This document shows positions 27,596 through 33,941 of a DNA stretch of 64,000 nucleotides, piece after piece. Position numbers and translations under genes: made by a program. The stretch comes from a virus. Position 1 is the first letter of the stretch, and each line of letters starts with the position of its first letter. The notes under the pieces were generated by a model that made no database searches, had not been told where the DNA came from, and was given only the letters and a program-made list of their open reading frames with translations. Location: IMG/VR virus record IMGVR_UViG_2599185311_000001, positions 1,978 to 65,977 of that record; one strand, written 5' to 3'.

Positions 27596-28330
27596 TTAAC
27601 GGGCGTACATGCCCCACCAGAAGACGTGGCCGAGGATGACGATTTGCTCATCCTGCATTTCCTGGAAGGTGTAGTCCTCATCCGGATGTTCGTCGCGGTT
27701 GAAGCTGCGCAGGCGGATACCGGTGGGCAGGCGATAAAGCTGCTTCACCCGCAGTTGGCCGTTGTGGTTGATGGCGTAGAGGTCACCGTCGACGATGTCG
27801 CCGATCCCGCATTTGCCTGCGTTCACCCCAACCGTGGCACCGTCGCGCAGCACCGGCAACATGCTGTTGCCGCGCACCGTCACGCACTTGGCCTGGTCGA
27901 ACTGCACGCCGTTATGCCGCAGGCTGCGCTTGCCGAAGCGCAGGCTGGAGCGCTCGCTTTCCTCGATGACGAATCTTCCTGATCCAGCAGCCAATTCAAC
28001 CTCGCGCAGAAAAGGGACCGACACTTCGTCTTCTTCGACGGGTGTCTCGTCGTCCCACAGGCTTATGTCCTTGAGTTCGGAATGCGGCTCATCGCGGCGG
28101 GCATTGCCGGCGGGCGCAACGTCCGCGCGCCCGCGCAACTGATCGGTACTCACGGCGAAGTACTCGGCGATCTTCGAGATGTGTTTATCCGAAGGATCGA
28201 CGATCTTGCCGCTGAGGATCCGCGAGAGGGTGGACTGAGGCACGCCGGTACGCCGGTGAAGCTCCGTGGGGGAGATCCCGTGCTGATCGAGCAATGCTCT
28301 TAATACGGTAGAAACGTTGCGTTTTTGCAT
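27596..28330 (-). CDS. prtR: PrtR-like cI repressor (HTH + S24 autopeptidase)
   Basis: N-terminal HTH (ISPTELHRRTGVPQSTLSRIL); S24 motifs VRGNSMLP and LRVKQL; Ala-Gly site in LAAGSG. Confidence 0.9.
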   Translation of the reverse strand: MQKRNVSTVLRALLDQHGISPTELHRRTGVPQSTLSRILSGKIVDPSDKHISKIAEYFAVSTDQLRGRADVAPAGNARRDEPHSELKDISLWDDETPVEEDEVSVPFLREVELAAGSGRFVIEESERSSLRFGKRSLRHNGVQFDQAKCVTVRGNSMLPVLRDGATVGVNAGKCGIGDIVDGDLYAINHNGQLRVKQLYRLPTGIRLRSFNRDEHPDEDYTFQEMQDEQIVILGHVFWWGMYAR

Positions 28331-28412
28331 AACGCGCATAGTGCTTGTTCTTTTCGCAGAAGACAAATGCTGTTTTGCATAAATATGCAATTTCAAGCCT
28401 TTTGAATTCATT

Positions 28413-28501
28413 GTGGCGAGGGAGCTTGCTCCCGCTTGGGTGCGCAGCGCCCACAAAAAGGGTCTGCTGCGCAGCCCAGCGGGAGCAAGCTCCCTCGCCA
28501 C
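28413..28501. repeat. REP doublet of a second family
   Basis: GTGGCGAGGGAGCTTGCTCCCGC ... GCGGGAGCAAGCTCCCTCGCCAC. Confidence 0.88.
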
Positions 28502-29408: not shown

Positions 29409-29641
29409 GGGGAAACGCAGTCCCACCAAGCATCAGGTCGGCTATCAGGCCGCCTCGACCCGCCGTCAGGGCGGAACCCTAAGCAGCCGTTACCGCAACA
29501 ACGGATATGCACACGTTCCCAAAACCACTCACATATGGGTCCCACCAGACCACCCATGTTAACCTTGCGCCCATCGCGGAAAAGCCGGGCCAATGCCCCT
29601 CCTTTTGCCCCACACCTTTCAACGAGCTTGCCTGACACCCC

Positions 29642-29752
29642 ATGAATACAGCCGTGAACGACCTGTCCTCCCACACGCCGATGATGCAGCAGTATGAGCT
29701 TCAGAGTGGCTTAGGCGGTGCACTACAAGGGCTGCAGACATTTTTCGTCTAA
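29642..29752 (+). pseudogene. mutS: 5' fragment of mutS (18 codons), fused to 18 prophage-derived codons and stopped
   Basis: MNTAVNDLSSHTPMMQQY carries the hallmark MutS N-terminal HTPMMQQY; homology ends after QQY (then ELQSGLGG..V*). Confidence 0.88.
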
Positions 29753-29820
29753 AACTCTTGGCTTAATTCGCGTGTGTTTCGGCCAATAAAACCAAGATAG
29801 ATTGAGGTAGTTTTAGACAC
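29670..29820. other. attL region of the prophage
   Basis: mutS break at ~29694; inverted 9-mers GTCTAAAAC (29747) and GTTTTAGAC (29810) as candidate integrase arm sites. Confidence 0.65.
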
Positions 29821-30102
29821 GCGTCGGCGCCCCTACCCATCTCAATATCCCCCGAAAAACCATAACGACGGAGCCTAGGCTTGGTCCGTGCGCTATCAAC
29901 TCATTTCAGCGACGAGACACTGTTGATTCGTCCAGATCGCCGCTCTTCCGACTGATCGTCATACCAGCCAGCATTCGCGAAGCATGTTGTCGCCTGCTAC
30001 TCTCAAGCAAAGGTACGGCCCCTATTTGTTTAATCGGATTGGCGCTCGCTGCGCAGCAAGAGGCGGCCGTACCCTCCCATAAAGCGTGAAAGCGTGCGCC
30101 CC

Positions 30103-30471
30103 ATGACCAAACCACTTGTTCAACCCCGAATCCTTAGGGCCTCTCAAGCGCCATCCTACCTGGGTATGTGCCGGGACGAGTTCAACAGGACGGTACGGCC
30201 CAACGTTCAGGAGTTCCCAATCGGAAAGCTGGGTATCGGCTTCGATCGCCTAGAGCTAGATGCCTGGGCTGATGCGTATATTGCCGCCAACGCTATCGAA
30301 AAACATCCGCCGATATGCGCGCCCACGCAACAGTTGGGCTCCGCCGTACGGCCAATGTCGCGCGCGCAGCCCGGAACGGCCACTAGGAAAACGGCGCCCG
30401 CTCACGCAACAAAGGAAGAATTTGAAAGATTGATAGAAACGATCTTGGGCAAACGAAAACGGAAGCTCTAA
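30103..30471 (+). CDS. Excisionase-like winged-helix protein 1
   Basis: PRILRASQAPSYLGMCRDEFNRTVRP..EFPIGKLGIGFDRLELDAWA pattern, recalled from small genes that precede Pseudomonas prophage integrases; basic tail. Confidence 0.65.
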   Translation: MTKPLVQPRILRASQAPSYLGMCRDEFNRTVRPNVQEFPIGKLGIGFDRLELDAWADAYIAANAIEKHPPICAPTQQLGSAVRPMSRAQPGTATRKTAPAHATKEEFERLIETILGKRKRKL

Positions 30472-30507
30472 TCAGGATCCAAGCATGCGTTGCCGGGGAG
30501 GTTCCCT

Positions 30508-30759
30508 ATGGATGATGAGTGTGAGGTCGTATACGTAGCAGGCCTAGGAAAAATGCTCGGGCGAACTGAAGCCTCGGTAAGAGAAGGGATTCGCCGCGGC
30601 GTGGATTGGCTGCCGAAGGGATTTAAGATGGGCGCCAGGCATTGCTGGCTCAAGGATGATGTGAAGGAGTTCCTGCGCGCTTGCCGGGATGGCGAGAACA
30701 AGACGCCGAAAGTGGGCAGGAAGCGCCGGCCGCAGCCGACGCTCGTAACTCTTCGCTGA
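30508..30759 (+). CDS. Excisionase-like winged-helix protein 2
   Basis: GGAGG RBS; VVYVAGLGKMLGRTEASVREGIRRG..LPKGFKMG..HCWLKDDVKEFL. Confidence 0.65.
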   Translation: MDDECEVVYVAGLGKMLGRTEASVREGIRRGVDWLPKGFKMGARHCWLKDDVKEFLRACRDGENKTPKVGRKRRPQPTLVTLR

Positions 30760-30773
30760 AGGGAGAGCAGCCC

Positions 30774-30992
30774 GTGCCAAGCAGAGCCGAAACAAACAGC
30801 ATTGATCGCTTCATGCGCCTCGACGAGGTACTTCACGTCACTGGCCTTGGCCGTAACACGGTTTATCGCCGCATCAGGGAAGGCACATTTCCAAAGCAAG
30901 TCAGGATAGGCCCCAATTCAGTTGCTTGGCGTCAGTCGGCAATCGTTGAATGGATGGGTTCGTTCACGCCGAACAAAGATCAGCCCTGGTGA
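30774..30992 (+). CDS. AlpA-family regulator/excisionase (domain 3)
   Basis: FMRLDEVLHVTGLGRNTVYRRIREGTFPKQVRIGPNSVAWRQSAIVEWM is a textbook AlpA pattern; GTG start after a GGGAG RBS. Confidence 0.88.
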   Translation: MPSRAETNSIDRFMRLDEVLHVTGLGRNTVYRRIREGTFPKQVRIGPNSVAWRQSAIVEWMGSFTPNKDQPW

Positions 30993-30996
30993 AAAT

Positions 30997-31593
30997 ATGC
31001 GCTATTTGACCATCAGAAAATTTGCTAACGAGGTCGGATACACTGAGGCGGCAATACGATCGAAGATCGCTGATGGAACGTGGATTGAAGATCAAGTGTG
31101 GAGACGAGCTCCTGACAATCGGATTTTGATCGACGTGCACGGATTTGAAGAGTGGGTGGTAAACGGGAAAAGTCGCGAAGTATTAAAGCAGCCCCTCCTG
31201 CGGTCGCCCTCTTCCAAGATAAGCAAATCTTCACTCAGCCCGCCCCCTTTAGTCCAAACCTCGCAGGGGGTGCCTGAGCTCACCGGCGACAAGATTCATG
31301 AGAAGAGGCTAGCCGAGCTGATCGGAACCACCCCCAAAGCGCTGGAGCACAAGCGGCGAGAAGGAATTATTCCGGAAGGAGTCTGGCTCAAGGAGCGCGG
31401 ACGGATCATGTACAGCCTGGCGAGATATAACGAATGGGCAGAAAAACAATGGGTTTCACGAATACAGGCGAGCCCGGGTGCCAAAGCGTGGGAATCGATT
31501 TCACCTAGATCGGTGCACGCCCAAGCAAAACGAGTTCCGATAAAGCCTCCTCGCAAGGGATCGCAACGGCCGGTGATCACTATGCTCGAGTGA
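30997..31593 (+). CDS. Tandem double excisionase-like protein (domains 4 and 5)
   Basis: Domain A YLTIRKFANEVGYTEAAIRSKIADGTW..RILIDVHGFEEWV; domain B KIHEKRLAELIGTTPKALEHKRREG..RIMYSLARYNEWA; internal in-frame GTG at 31270. Confidence 0.72.
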   Translation: MRYLTIRKFANEVGYTEAAIRSKIADGTWIEDQVWRRAPDNRILIDVHGFEEWVVNGKSREVLKQPLLRSPSSKISKSSLSPPPLVQTSQGVPELTGDKIHEKRLAELIGTTPKALEHKRREGIIPEGVWLKERGRIMYSLARYNEWAEKQWVSRIQASPGAKAWESISPRSVHAQAKRVPIKPPRKGSQRPVITMLE

Positions 31594-31718
31594 AAGAGAA
31601 TTCGGCGCGTAGCTATGACGAATGCCCCCTACCCCAATCGGCATGCAGCCTGAACCGCGAGACGCCGACCTTAGGTTGGCTTGCCAGGGCCGCCTACGGG
31701 ACAACGAGAAGTCCATAA

Positions 31719-31928
31719 ATGTCCAATTCTGACCTTCTTCCCTCCCTCCTATTCAGGATCAACGAAAATCAGCTCGCCCTGGAAGCTGCCATCATGGAAC
31801 TGACCAACTGGGCCGAGCGGCAAGGATCTGCCGAGGTTGCTGAGAACGTACGTGGCGCCTTGGCAACGATCAGCCTGAATGAAGAGTTCGTCAAAATGAG
31901 CCTGGCAATCATGATGTCTCCCGACTGA
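31719..31928 (+). CDS. Small helical hypothetical protein typical of Pseudomonas prophage ends
   Basis: SDLLPSLLFRINENQLALEAAIMEL motif. Confidence 0.75.
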   Translation: MSNSDLLPSLLFRINENQLALEAAIMELTNWAERQGSAEVAENVRGALATISLNEEFVKMSLAIMMSPD

Positions 31929-31976
31929 CGGCTAGCAACTCGTCGCTCAGTCCTCGCCGCACTATTGCGCCTCGAT

Positions 31977-31996
31977 TACTGTACATCCAAACAGTA
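31977..31996. promoter_or_regulatory. LexA (SOS) box
   Basis: TACTGTACATCCAAACAGTA = TACTGT-N8-ACAGTA, 20 bp upstream of the ATG at 32017. Confidence 0.85.
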
Positions 31997-32016
31997 GTCA
32001 GCCAGCGATCCTAACC

Positions 32017-32754
32017 ATGAACTTTGACCAAGCCAAAGCGCTGAGACTTCAGCTTTGGCGAACGACCCTTGATGACCACGAATTCCGAATGGAAAACCCT
32101 GAGGCTCACAGATCAAGCCTGCATGAAACCAGCGCCAGGCTCGCCGAGGAAGGCTTGATTGACCGCATGCAGCAGTTGGAAATGGATGAAATGGCGGATT
32201 CCGCTTACTGGCACGCCGTAGAGGAGCTGCAGTCAAACCCAGTCATGTACCGCGGCGCATGTGGATATGACGTGGTGCCCCGGGATGGCGGCCCAAGGAT
32301 CGGGACGATATTTCATTCAGTCCTTCGCCTGGAAGAAAGCTGCGGCGACAAGCCGCGTCCCTATGATGGAAAAGTCTACCGGGACAAATCGGGGCTGGTA
32401 CTCAATTACAGCTTCGCCACAGCCACCGGGCGCATAGTAGGCCTCATCCTGACGATGGATGACGGTCGACAGTTCGACCTGATTGAGACGAAACGAATGG
32501 TCTCGGGCAAGGTGTACGAAGCGATTGATGACCCAGATGTCTATCGATGGATGGTCGATGTTGTCCAGGTCGCGACAGAGAACCGGGATGTTGAAATCGT
32601 GCAGAGGCTCAGGCCTTTGCTGGAACTGGCAAGGTTTGTCCAATGCTCGAAGTGCCTGGATCAGTTCGGCGTACGCGAGGACTGCGAGCCTTGTAGCGGC
32701 TTGGGCTTCGTCGAAAAGCCTCGATGCTCAAGCAAACTTCCTGTGAATGGCTAG
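32017..32754 (+). CDS. SOS-linked hypothetical protein with C-terminal CxxC..CxxC zinc finger
   Basis: CSKC..CEPC; preceded by the LexA box. Confidence 0.78.
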   Translation: MNFDQAKALRLQLWRTTLDDHEFRMENPEAHRSSLHETSARLAEEGLIDRMQQLEMDEMADSAYWHAVEELQSNPVMYRGACGYDVVPRDGGPRIGTIFHSVLRLEESCGDKPRPYDGKVYRDKSGLVLNYSFATATGRIVGLILTMDDGRQFDLIETKRMVSGKVYEAIDDPDVYRWMVDVVQVATENRDVEIVQRLRPLLELARFVQCSKCLDQFGVREDCEPCSGLGFVEKPRCSSKLPVNG

Positions 32755-32788
32755 GGTCCACTGAGAAATGCAGAATCAGGGGATCGTA

Positions 32789-33241
32789 ATGTGCGGCGGA
32801 GTTGAGGCGGCGGACAAAAACAGAGCGTATGAACGGGTGAAGGTGTACTTCCCGAACCCCAAGGCTGCGTTTCCCGTGGTGCTTGAAGACGGGACCGACC
32901 TTGGATGGGTGCGATGGGGCCGGCGCCGTGAGGAGAAAGGCACCGGCCCATCAGGAGGATGGGCGAAGCTGGAGACGGTGGAGCGTGGCGGGTGGGAGAA
33001 GTATCACCCGCAACGGGCCCTGGGGCTCGTGCAGCGCTACATGGAGAAGGATGGGGAGCGGGTTTCGCACTGGTTCGACATGAACGAAGGCTTCGGACTG
33101 GAATGCCTGGTGCTGGGCGAGGACGAGAACCGACGGGTCTACGTCGTCACCACCTCGCCGCCTGATGAGTACGCCTGGATTCACGACCGGTGGCCGATGA
33201 TAGGACGGATTCCCACGCCTATCGTGGGATCAGCTCCCTGA
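32789..33241 (+). CDS. Short SRAP/HMCES-like protein (Cys2)
   Basis: Starts MCGG; has WG..R, RYMEK and HDRWPM motifs resembling SRAP (MCGR..E..HDRMP). Confidence 0.6.
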   Translation: MCGGVEAADKNRAYERVKVYFPNPKAAFPVVLEDGTDLGWVRWGRRREEKGTGPSGGWAKLETVERGGWEKYHPQRALGLVQRYMEKDGERVSHWFDMNEGFGLECLVLGEDENRRVYVVTTSPPDEYAWIHDRWPMIGRIPTPIVGSAP

Positions 33242-33272
33242 CATACGCCTGGCATGCCTTCAGCGCGATCAG
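33219..33272 (-). pseudogene. Relic 3' end of an Rz-type i-spanin gene
   Basis: LIALKACQAYVRELIPR* matches the LIAL.ACQAYVR C-terminus recalled for Pseudomonas Rz proteins. Confidence 0.55.
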
Positions 33273-33374
33273 CTCGATATTCGTCATAGACGGCGGGAAT
33301 AGATTGCTATCCCTCGCTACGATAAAATAATATTCCGGAACTAGTTCCGACGAGCCTGGACGCAGATGAATTAA

Positions 33375-33941
33375 TTACTTTTCAAGCACACCACGCACTG
33401 CGTCGTAAGAGTCAGTGCACGCGTTGCCAGCGATCGTTGCCCGATCAAGAGCCCCTGCAAGCTCGACGTTCTGTTGTATTGATTTATCAAGTATATCCTG
33501 AAGTACCTTAATTGCCTCATCTCCTTTTTTACTAGCTAAATCCTTTTGCCAGCCATCATACTTTCTCATCATTGCCGCACTGCACCCTTCAGCACAGATA
33601 GCACCAAGGTCTACCTGTCTGGCGACCTCTGGAAGGGGCGGAATGTATGGCTCTAAGGAAATTGCTGCTCCTAATCGATTTTGTGCTTCTGGCGTGAAAG
33701 GCACAGGTGAATATTTAGACACTACTGTCGTAGCCCAAACTTTCAGTGATGGATCAAGTTTGTCTCCTCCTTCCCTGAGCATATTCATCGCCATTGTAAG
33801 GTAATCTTTTTTTATGCCATCTTCTGCAATGCTTTGTTGCACCGTATATCCAACTAAGCCCAGCACAGCCGGGATAGCTATCGCGGACAAGATGGTCGCA
33901 ATGGAGCGCGTTTTCTCAAGAACTGAATTTAAATCTGACAC
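33375..33941 (-). CDS. Single-pass membrane moron with spanin-like C-terminal segments
   Basis: TM segment IATILSAIAIPAVLGLVGY; AGGAG RBS; AT-richer than flanks. Confidence 0.75.
   Translation of the reverse strand: MSDLNSVLEKTRSIATILSAIAIPAVLGLVGYTVQQSIAEDGIKKDYLTMAMNMLREGGDKLDPSLKVWATTVVSKYSPVPFTPEAQNRLGAAISLEPYIPPLPEVARQVDLGAICAEGCSAAMMRKYDGWQKDLASKKGDEAIKVLQDILDKSIQQNVELAGALDRATIAGNACTDSYDAVRGVLEK

Follow-up and report, generated by a model that had tools for sequence, protein, structure and literature searches.

Four short genes in tandem, immediately inside one end of a Pseudomonas prophage, encode five different winged-helix domains of the excisionase (Xis) type. They occupy positions 30103-31593 of a 64,000-nucleotide window from the IMG/VR record IMGVR_UViG_2599185311_000001 (record positions 1,978 to 65,977), which is the stretch analysed here and to which coordinates refer unless stated otherwise. 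Excisionases are recombination directionality factors (RDFs), generally regarded as one-per-element accessories of their integrase. Each gene of the array is an ordinary RDF-type family member by its fold and by the position of its homologues, and none is paired with an integrase in this element. Stubs of integrase genes suggest that the array is an accretion of orphaned excisionase genes, derived from xis-int modules that lost their integrase. The genes are kept by purifying selection, and their products may, as a tentative reading, act on the matching modules of rival temperate phages.

Five Xis-type domains in four open reading frames

The four open reading frames (ORFs) lie on the plus strand directly inside the left attachment site (attL), separated by 4-50 bp:

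30103-30471, plus strand: ORF1 (family D1), 122 amino acids; predicted Xis-fold winged helix at residues 10-63, a disordered basic tail and a C-terminal helix.
30508-30759, plus strand: ORF2 (family D2), 83 amino acids; predicted Xis/MerR-fold winged helix with a basic tail; matches phrog_6355.
30774-30992, plus strand: ORF3 (family D3, AlpA-type), 72 amino acids from a GTG start; Pfam Phage_AlpA.
30997-31593, plus strand: ORF4, 198 amino acids; domains D4N (about residues 1-66) and D4C (about residues 90-165) with a Ser/Pro-rich linker and a basic C-terminal tail.

A first-pass annotation, made by a model from the sequence alone, had described four tightly packed plus-strand ORFs encoding five mutually dissimilar Xis/AlpA-type domains with basic tails. 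This description holds up: the gaps are short, the tails are visible in the translations, and the domains are 17-29% identical pairwise, with a detectable relationship only between D4N and D4C (profile E value about 1e-8). An origin from tandem prophages, with attachment-site remnants between the genes, was ruled out by the gaps of merely 4-50 bp.

ORF3 matches the full Pfam model of Phage_AlpA (PF05930, model positions 1-51; 1e-18, 67.4 bits against a gathering cut-off of 21), and an alternative ATG start at 30813 would give a protein of 59 amino acids. Sequence searches of the PDB at E <= 1 matched ORF3 to the GIsul2 excisionase 8c3t (2e-4) and TorI (0.7) and to no others; the solved AlpA antiterminator chain was not matched at this threshold. 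Both halves of ORF4 fall into PHROG families annotated 'excisionase' (D4N, phrog_539, 3e-9; D4C, phrog_9668, 8e-48), and look-up in a protein atlas by language model and structure placed ORF4 with DUF1233, Excisionase, HTH_17 and Cox clusters. A single other protein (P0241) among 1.84 billion representatives matches ORF4 over its full length; among the matches listed, two more proteins align in two stretches and the rest match one domain. D4N also exists as a stand-alone gene of 86-95 amino acids in L060 and several other loci, arrays among them. ORF4 is a fusion of two neighbouring array genes from two Xis families. We also noticed a second two-family Xis fusion in G020 (L133, 9264-9770), where an ORF near the mutS end joins a DUF4224-like to a D4C-type domain.

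ORF1, which has an alternative GTG start at 30094, matches phrog_13517 (3e-34) and weakly phrog_66. Neither ORF1 nor ORF2 has a Pfam match, and AlphaFold2 models were built for both on alignments of their homologues. Both models consist of a strand, two helices, a beta hairpin and a final helix, the core of ORF1 having a pLDDT of 82-91. The best Foldseek matches were Pukovnik Xis and RdfS for ORF1, and NmlR, RdfS, BldC, GIsul2 Xis and P2 Cox for ORF2, so that the best structural matches of the pair in the PDB comprise Pukovnik Xis, RdfS, the GIsul2 excisionase, BldC, MerR/NmlR and P2 Cox (probability 0.95-1.0). For the matches to Xis, RdfS and GIsul2 Xis, the target-normalised TM score is 0.54-0.69 and the probability 0.82-1.0. 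The E values of these matches are weak (0.03-0.3), as expected because the domains have only about 55 residues. Sequence searches of the PDB with ORF1, ORF2, ORF4 and the ORF1 and ORF2 family profiles returned nothing meaningful, and NCBIfam and PADLOC searches gave only weak generic helix-turn-helix (MADS1) matches. Taken over Pfam, PHROG and, for ORF1 and ORF2, the AlphaFold2 models and their Foldseek matches, all five domains are Xis/MerR-fold winged helices, those of ORF1 and ORF2 as predicted structures; the modelling as Xis/AlpA winged helices proposed in the first-pass annotation is thereby borne out. The Xis fold is common to regulators that are not RDFs, and therefore the fold alone does not prove RDF function.

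Relatives of the array domains lie beside integrases

Homologues of ORF1 overlap the start of a 392-amino-acid integrase in phiPSA1, SC_8_H2H8 and five prophages of the P. putida group. Those of ORF2 adjoin a convergent integrase in the P. aeruginosa phages YA3 (where the gene is annotated 'excisionase') and Shamal and in about 25 prophage loci, and Ab31 and PAJU2 also carry ORF2 homologues. The canonical copy next to the integrase in L139 shares 81% of its residues with ORF2, and the helix-turn-helix regions of the two are identical. A D4N-type gene overlaps the integrase start in CF60a and G050, and likewise in Pseudomonas sp. D1-36; the integrase of CF60a is annotated 'transposase', and its Pfam domains are Arm-DNA-bind_2 and Phage_integrase. 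The D4C-type gene does the same in PS-1 and about 30 IMG/VR loci, while D4C matches in MD8 and JBD44 fall on annotated integrase genes. Comparison of the integrases of three of these lineages gave identities of 28% or less, and the prophage's own integrase is not close to any of them. Single-copy homologues beside different integrases, for which the first-pass annotation had proposed to look, were therefore found for the ORF1, ORF2, D4N and D4C families. The adjacent integrase by which an RDF is recognised is seen with these homologues elsewhere and not with the five domains here.

Integrase stubs in and near the arrays

A remnant of an integrase gene overlaps the end of the array:

31434-31676, plus strand: relic of a PS-1-type integrase gene (5' part); it overlaps the end of ORF4 in a different reading frame, extends some 80 bp past it and has a stop at codon 25.

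The ATG of this relic at 31434 lies 160 bp before the ORF4 stop, the same xis/int overlap as in phage PS-1. Aligned by tblastn, the relic corresponds to residues 1-86 of the PS-1 integrase (32% identity, E = 0.002), with weak similarity to about position 31676, and it matches a profile of integrase N-termini at E = 7e-6. It is visible in local and profile searches only: a plain tblastn of integrase N-termini over the whole window did not recover it, because the stop at codon 25 splits the match. In the orthologous stretch of L004, an open frame of 54 codons is 46% identical to these integrases (E = 1e-9). It counts against our reading that the first 53 codons of the relic lie inside ORF4, so that this part is not independent of ORF4. 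The real point of the relic in the window is that the rest of the integrase gene is absent.

The longest array, in P. gingeri A8002 (L138, 5291-7557), has six genes in the order HTH_17, DUF4224, ORF2-type, AlpA, AlpA and DUF4224, followed by a further gene, orf5. Its first DUF4224 gene is 75% identical to the one that the window prophage carries beside its own integrase. Next comes an integrase stub of the lineage found in the window prophage, 42 codons from the start of the gene (67% identity, E = 7e-17), which the ORF2-type gene adjoins directly. With the orphaned gene and the stub side by side, a pair that is functional in the window prophage is therefore decayed in P. gingeri. In Pseudomonas sp. 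RGM2987 (L153), a fragmented integrase of the CF60a type lies 2 kb past the downstream end of the array. Because of these stubs, in the window and L004, in P. gingeri and in RGM2987, we infer that the array most likely grew by accretion. Modules of xis and int would repeatedly have joined this end of the genome, each losing its integrase while its xis gene was kept.

The first-pass annotation had noted neither an integrase gene nor a relic of one near the cassette. It was right in that no intact integrase lies within about 38 kb, but it had missed the relic at 31434-31676, and stubs are also present in relatives. Its idea of a 'collected arsenal', that is, of active gathering, did not stand, as the stubs point instead to passive accretion from modules without integrase.

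The prophage has its own integrase and DUF4224 gene

The only integrase of the record, a tyrosine integrase, lies at its far right end (record positions 71736-72725), about 38 kb from the array; it points outward and is truncated where the record stops. The excised circle thus has int, attP (the phage attachment site) and the array in succession on one strand. A gene for a 64-amino-acid DUF4224 protein ends 12 bp before the integrase start, so that the prophage's own xis-int pair occupies record positions 71530-72725, outside the window. The DUF4224 protein matches Pfam PF13986 (1.7e-11, 44.3 bits against a cut-off of 22) and phrog_4764, 'excisionase' (7e-23).

Of 63 IMG/VR loci with an integrase of this lineage, at identities down to 45%, 62 have a DUF4224 gene immediately before int, whereas records with this lineage contain genes of the ORF1, ORF2 or ORF3 families in four of 46 cases and ORF4-like genes in three of 46. 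In the complete genome G031, which has terminal repeats and the same integrase, tail and lysis genes come straight after DUF4224, int and attP, and an array is absent. We found no experimental characterisation of DUF4224, nor any documented RDF activity, in the literature searched. Judged by its place beside int, DUF4224 is the putative cognate Xis of the prophage. Since it is kept there in 62 of 63 loci and the array families rarely co-occur with this integrase, all five array domains are supernumerary, in agreement with the earlier suggestion that they are more than the phage needs.

The lysogeny module of the prophage, also outside the window (L002 7404-9273, record positions 69403-71272), has all its genes on one strand in the order CI-like S24 repressor, GerE/LuxR-type protein (phrog_3282, 'sigma factor'), small membrane protein, Arc-like protein, DUF4224 and int.

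Arrays recur with variable composition

Among 28 loci with ORF2 homologues in species-representative Pseudomonas genomes, 12 were arrays, 15 had a single gene beside an integrase and one was too near a contig end. The survey of other prophages suggested by the first-pass annotation thus did turn up similar variable arrays. The 12 arrays contain two to six Xis-like genes drawn from at least seven families. Many Pseudomonas prophages carry, next to convergent lysis genes, an array of a common type, ORF1-ORF2-[variable slot]-orf5, or one in which these parts are rearranged, and IMG/VR relatives show further gene orders, such as orf5-D2-D2'-D1-D3. The array is oriented toward convergent lysis genes wherever a late-gene marker falls within the retrieved flank. 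When the window is compared with close relatives, homology extends over the upstream region and ORF1-ORF2(-ORF3), breaks, and resumes at orf5; the slot in between is filled by ORF4 in the window and by an HTH_17 gene in P. corrugata and strain D1-36, and other relatives have nothing additional there. The L004 array is collinear with the window except that ORF3 is absent.

The gene that closes the common type is:

31719-31928, plus strand: orf5, 69 amino acids, a member of the function-unknown family phrog_12397 (6e-33), which accompanies most arrays.

It immediately precedes or follows the array in G014, G015, G020, G022, L036, L056, L137, L138, L140, L141, L143, L146-148 and L153, and the protein atlas places it in unnamed clusters only.

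Ratios of nonsynonymous to synonymous substitution (dN/dS) were calculated from array orthologues that share gene order and non-coding flanks, at synonymous divergences (dS) of 0.35-1.6. They were 0.20-0.22 for ORF1, 0.09-0.20 for ORF2, 0.11-0.18 for ORF3, 0.23 for ORF4 and 0.16-0.18 for orf5, which indicates that the array genes are under purifying selection. Because the compared arrays share synteny and non-coding flanks, this divergence took place within arrays.

A different layout was observed in four loci of the P. fluorescens group (L168, L171, L172 and L173). Here an integrase (frames of 418-437 amino acids) stands beside a tRNA-like sequence, an alpA gene lies about 1.2 kb downstream of the integrase, and the array follows 9-17 kb downstream of the integrase in the same orientation. 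These arrays therefore close the integrase-side transcription unit in the interior of the prophage instead of lying at the attachment-site end.

A conserved region upstream of ORF1

The sequence preceding the array is conserved together with ORF1:

29995-30102, plus strand: conserved region upstream of ORF1, inherited together with it; candidate promoter or operator.

These 107 bp are kept at 75-83% identity in L036, L037, L004, L153, L137 and L056, and the alignment shows invariant blocks. The arms of an inverted repeat, GGTACGGCC / GGCCGTACC, on either side of the palindrome GCTGCGCAGC, do not vary. Two direct copies of AAAGCGTG adjoin the ORF1 start codon. A promoter scan upstream of ORF1 gave no match to the sigma-70 consensus, and a motif search did not find AAAGCGTG enriched near the attachment sites of ORF1-type phages. 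An RNA structure for the conserved element was considered and dropped, its predicted fold not being significant (z = -1.5). The array is co-oriented with a truncated mutS gene on its left, and no plus-strand terminator was predicted in 29500-33500, the interval between the mutS fragment and the array included. A search for RNA sequencing runs that would show expression returned none. Transcription of the array in this lysogen may start at the captured mutS promoter in addition to the array's own conserved upstream region.

Possible functions of the array

The reading that we favour, as a possibility that falls short of being probable, is that the array interferes with rival temperate phages carrying matching modules. 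Lacking a partner integrase in cis, the array proteins would act only as free sequence-specific DNA-binding or DNA-bending proteins, and they would bind the attachment-site arm or the switch promoters of a rival. For the rival, integration would be blocked, excision would be untimely or the lysis-lysogeny switch would be disturbed, and the resident prophage would be spared by its DUF4224/Int pair of another type. Spelled out in this way as an inter-phage conflict system, in which the rivals' own type of RDF would block integration, evict or derail the switch while the own xis-int pair stays untouched, the proposal is more doubtful.

We favour interference because matching phages are common in the genus, because targets exist, the helix-turn-helix region of ORF2 being identical to that of a canonical integrase-adjacent Xis, and because array composition varies as in conflict loci. 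A further reason is that the array lacks the Xis type of its own integrase in three settings: DUF4224 in the window, G014, G015 and G022, the ORF1 type in G001 and the D4N type in G050. In G020, a divergent ORF of DUF4224::D4C type lies near the array and not within it. Purifying selection and variable composition are compatible with action in trans and do not prove it.

Several observations pull the other way. Prophages with a P4-like integrase on the tRNA side carry alpA about 1.2 kb downstream of it, yet their arrays contain AlpA-type genes; exclusion of the own type is therefore not general, and by a rough estimate the three absences are not statistically significant. Pseudomonas sp. RGM2987 has an array with an ORF2-type gene (L153) together with a canonical prophage (L139) whose integrase adjoins an Xis of that type, which argues against simple eviction, and the ORF2-type copy in that array has a 4-residue deletion in the recognition helix. 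The benefit would be modest, since blocked integration leaves lytic growth to the rival. We found no precedent in the literature searched for a phage using heterologous RDFs against rivals, and the Xis fold also serves ordinary regulators such as BldC and MerR.

This last point leads to the alternative that fares best, in which the orphaned Xis proteins are ordinary transcription regulators (repressors, activators or antiterminators) of genes of their own phage or host, with no role against other elements. We regard it as unlikely, but it has clear models. Dual-function RDFs are established in Apl of phage 186 (PMC7498355), XisF4 of Pf4 (PMC7379572) and TorI of KplE1 (PMC3509656), and AlpA of P. 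aeruginosa is an antiterminator (PMC7969949, PMC9371919). The fold matches include BldC, RacA and MerR/NmlR, the conserved repeats beside the ORF1 start could be an autoregulatory site, and purifying selection is equally compatible with regulation. A regulatory circuit should, however, keep its members, yet close relatives differ, with two to six genes, a variable slot and reshuffled orders. Genes moved from their original phage would also have lost their operator sites; the nearest solved sequence to ORF3 is an excisionase (8c3t), and the search for AAAGCGTG revealed no enrichment in the regions covered.

If the array were instead mostly an inert leftover, xis genes would have been stranded by module exchange, short and harmless, and renewed by recombination with incoming phages. 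The integrase stubs indeed mean that modules arrived and partly decayed, one ORF2-type array copy has the recognition-helix deletion, the L153 array has a fragmented integrase nearby, and the region is a mosaic hotspot. Nevertheless, we conclude that the array is not debris and hold this alternative to be improbable, because none of the four genes is disrupted, in contrast to the adjoining integrase frame, because syntenic arrays give a dN/dS of 0.09-0.23 at dS 0.35-1.6, and because arrays recur, with a variable slot between conserved flanks; the tight operon spacing is also kept.

It is most improbable that one of the five domains is the real excisionase, acting from across attP, with DUF4224 something else: the excised circle does place the array after int on the same strand, KplE1 does have its RDF at the prophage end opposite int (PMC3509656) and DUF4224 is without experimental characterisation in the literature searched, but the array families occur with this integrase in four (ORF1-3) and three (ORF4-like) of 46 records against DUF4224 upstream of int in 62 of 63 loci, and the complete genome G031 has DUF4224-int-attP without an array.

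Relation to known systems

Prophage ends are known for hotspots of accessory genes ('morons'). The array likewise sits in a mosaic and fast-changing slot, between the attachment site and the lysis genes and beside a LexA-box operon; its cargo consists of RDF-family DNA-binding genes and not of defence enzymes or toxins.

The domains share with the classical RDFs (lambda Xis, Pukovnik Xis, RdfS, GIsul2 Xis, P2 Cox, AlpA/Vis) the same small strand-helix-helix-wing-helix fold and the basic tails. The difference is that five of them stand here in tandem without a partner integrase, while the Xis adjacent to the integrase belongs to a sixth, unrelated family, DUF4224. In the TorI-IntS pair of KplE1/HK620, an RDF-type gene also lies at the opposite end from int by the attachment site, and the two are neighbours only in the excised circle (PMC3509656). 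The KplE1 factor is, however, a single cognate RDF, whereas the array members do not co-vary with the integrase.

Several RDFs on one element are known from the tripartite integrative and conjugative element of Mesorhizobium, in which three site-specific recombinases are reported to carry out three coordinated recombinations, with three RDFs induced in sequence (PMC5882170). The present prophage has one integrase and at least five surplus RDF-type domains. Apl, XisF4, the P. aeruginosa AlpA antiterminator and BldC likewise have the Xis fold and act on transcription, instead of or besides recombination; they are single genes with a defined target, in contrast to the variable multi-family arrays described here. 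No description of multi-family arrays of orphaned xis genes was found in the literature searched.

To the rule of one RDF per element, the locus is a recurrent exception in Pseudomonas prophages, in which surplus RDFs of several integrase lineages are stranded, kept by selection and reshuffled among close relatives. If the array proteins act in trans on matching modules, they would add a new layer to the competition between temperate phages, at the integration step, and would provide a set of natural, orthogonal inhibitors of excision and integration. If they are regulators instead, the locus would document the recycling of recombination factors into transcription factors. Either way, the stubs are a rare direct record of xis-int module turnover.

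Prophage boundaries and neighbouring genes

The IMG/VR 'provirus' record comprises 72.7 kb and has Pseudomonas as host. The left 27 kb of the window are the well-known tailocin cluster that adjoins mutS; a PrtR-like repressor is encoded at 27596-28501. The 'provirus' call (window 1-29000) thus fuses the true prophage with a chromosomal tailocin cluster that includes a DUF6124 gene as well as the prtR-like repressor, and therefore the completeness estimate of 94% for the record is that of a composite. A role of the cassette proteins as PrtN-like activators of the neighbouring tailocin was dropped, as they match no pyocin-activator (PrtN) Pfam family at E <= 0.1.

The host-side boundary is marked by a fragment of mutS:

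29642-29697, plus strand: host-side attL, the 5' end of mutS (18 codons, translation MNTAVNDLSSHTPMMQQY), followed by unrelated sequence and a stop.

The true prophage starts where this fragment breaks off, after 29697. Its minus-strand genes for lysis, tail, head, terminase and replication follow in rightward order, and its end lies beyond the window. The same mutS fragment is present at the non-integrase end of G014, G015 and G020, and an intact mutS is found behind int in relatives with the same integrase (L071). The fragment and these intact copies substantiate the earlier placement of the ORFs just inside attL.

In L071 (8994-12586), int is followed by a 285-amino-acid minus-strand gene and then by the intact mutS, which has a different N-terminus (MTDLSS...). 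Because of this different N-terminus downstream of int, the phage side supplies a new start of mutS after insertion, and presumably also its promoter. The host promoter and the first 18 mutS codons remain at the array-side end (window 29642-29760).

To the right of the array, a perfect LexA-type box (TACTGT-N8-ACAGTA) at 31978-31997 precedes a gene for a 245-amino-acid protein (phrog_19595) and a short SRAP-like gene, which together extend over 32017-33241. The SRAP-like protein has 157 amino acids, compared with 229-230 in its homologues in L004 and L036. Following right after the array, this unit looks like a separate accessory operon under SOS control.

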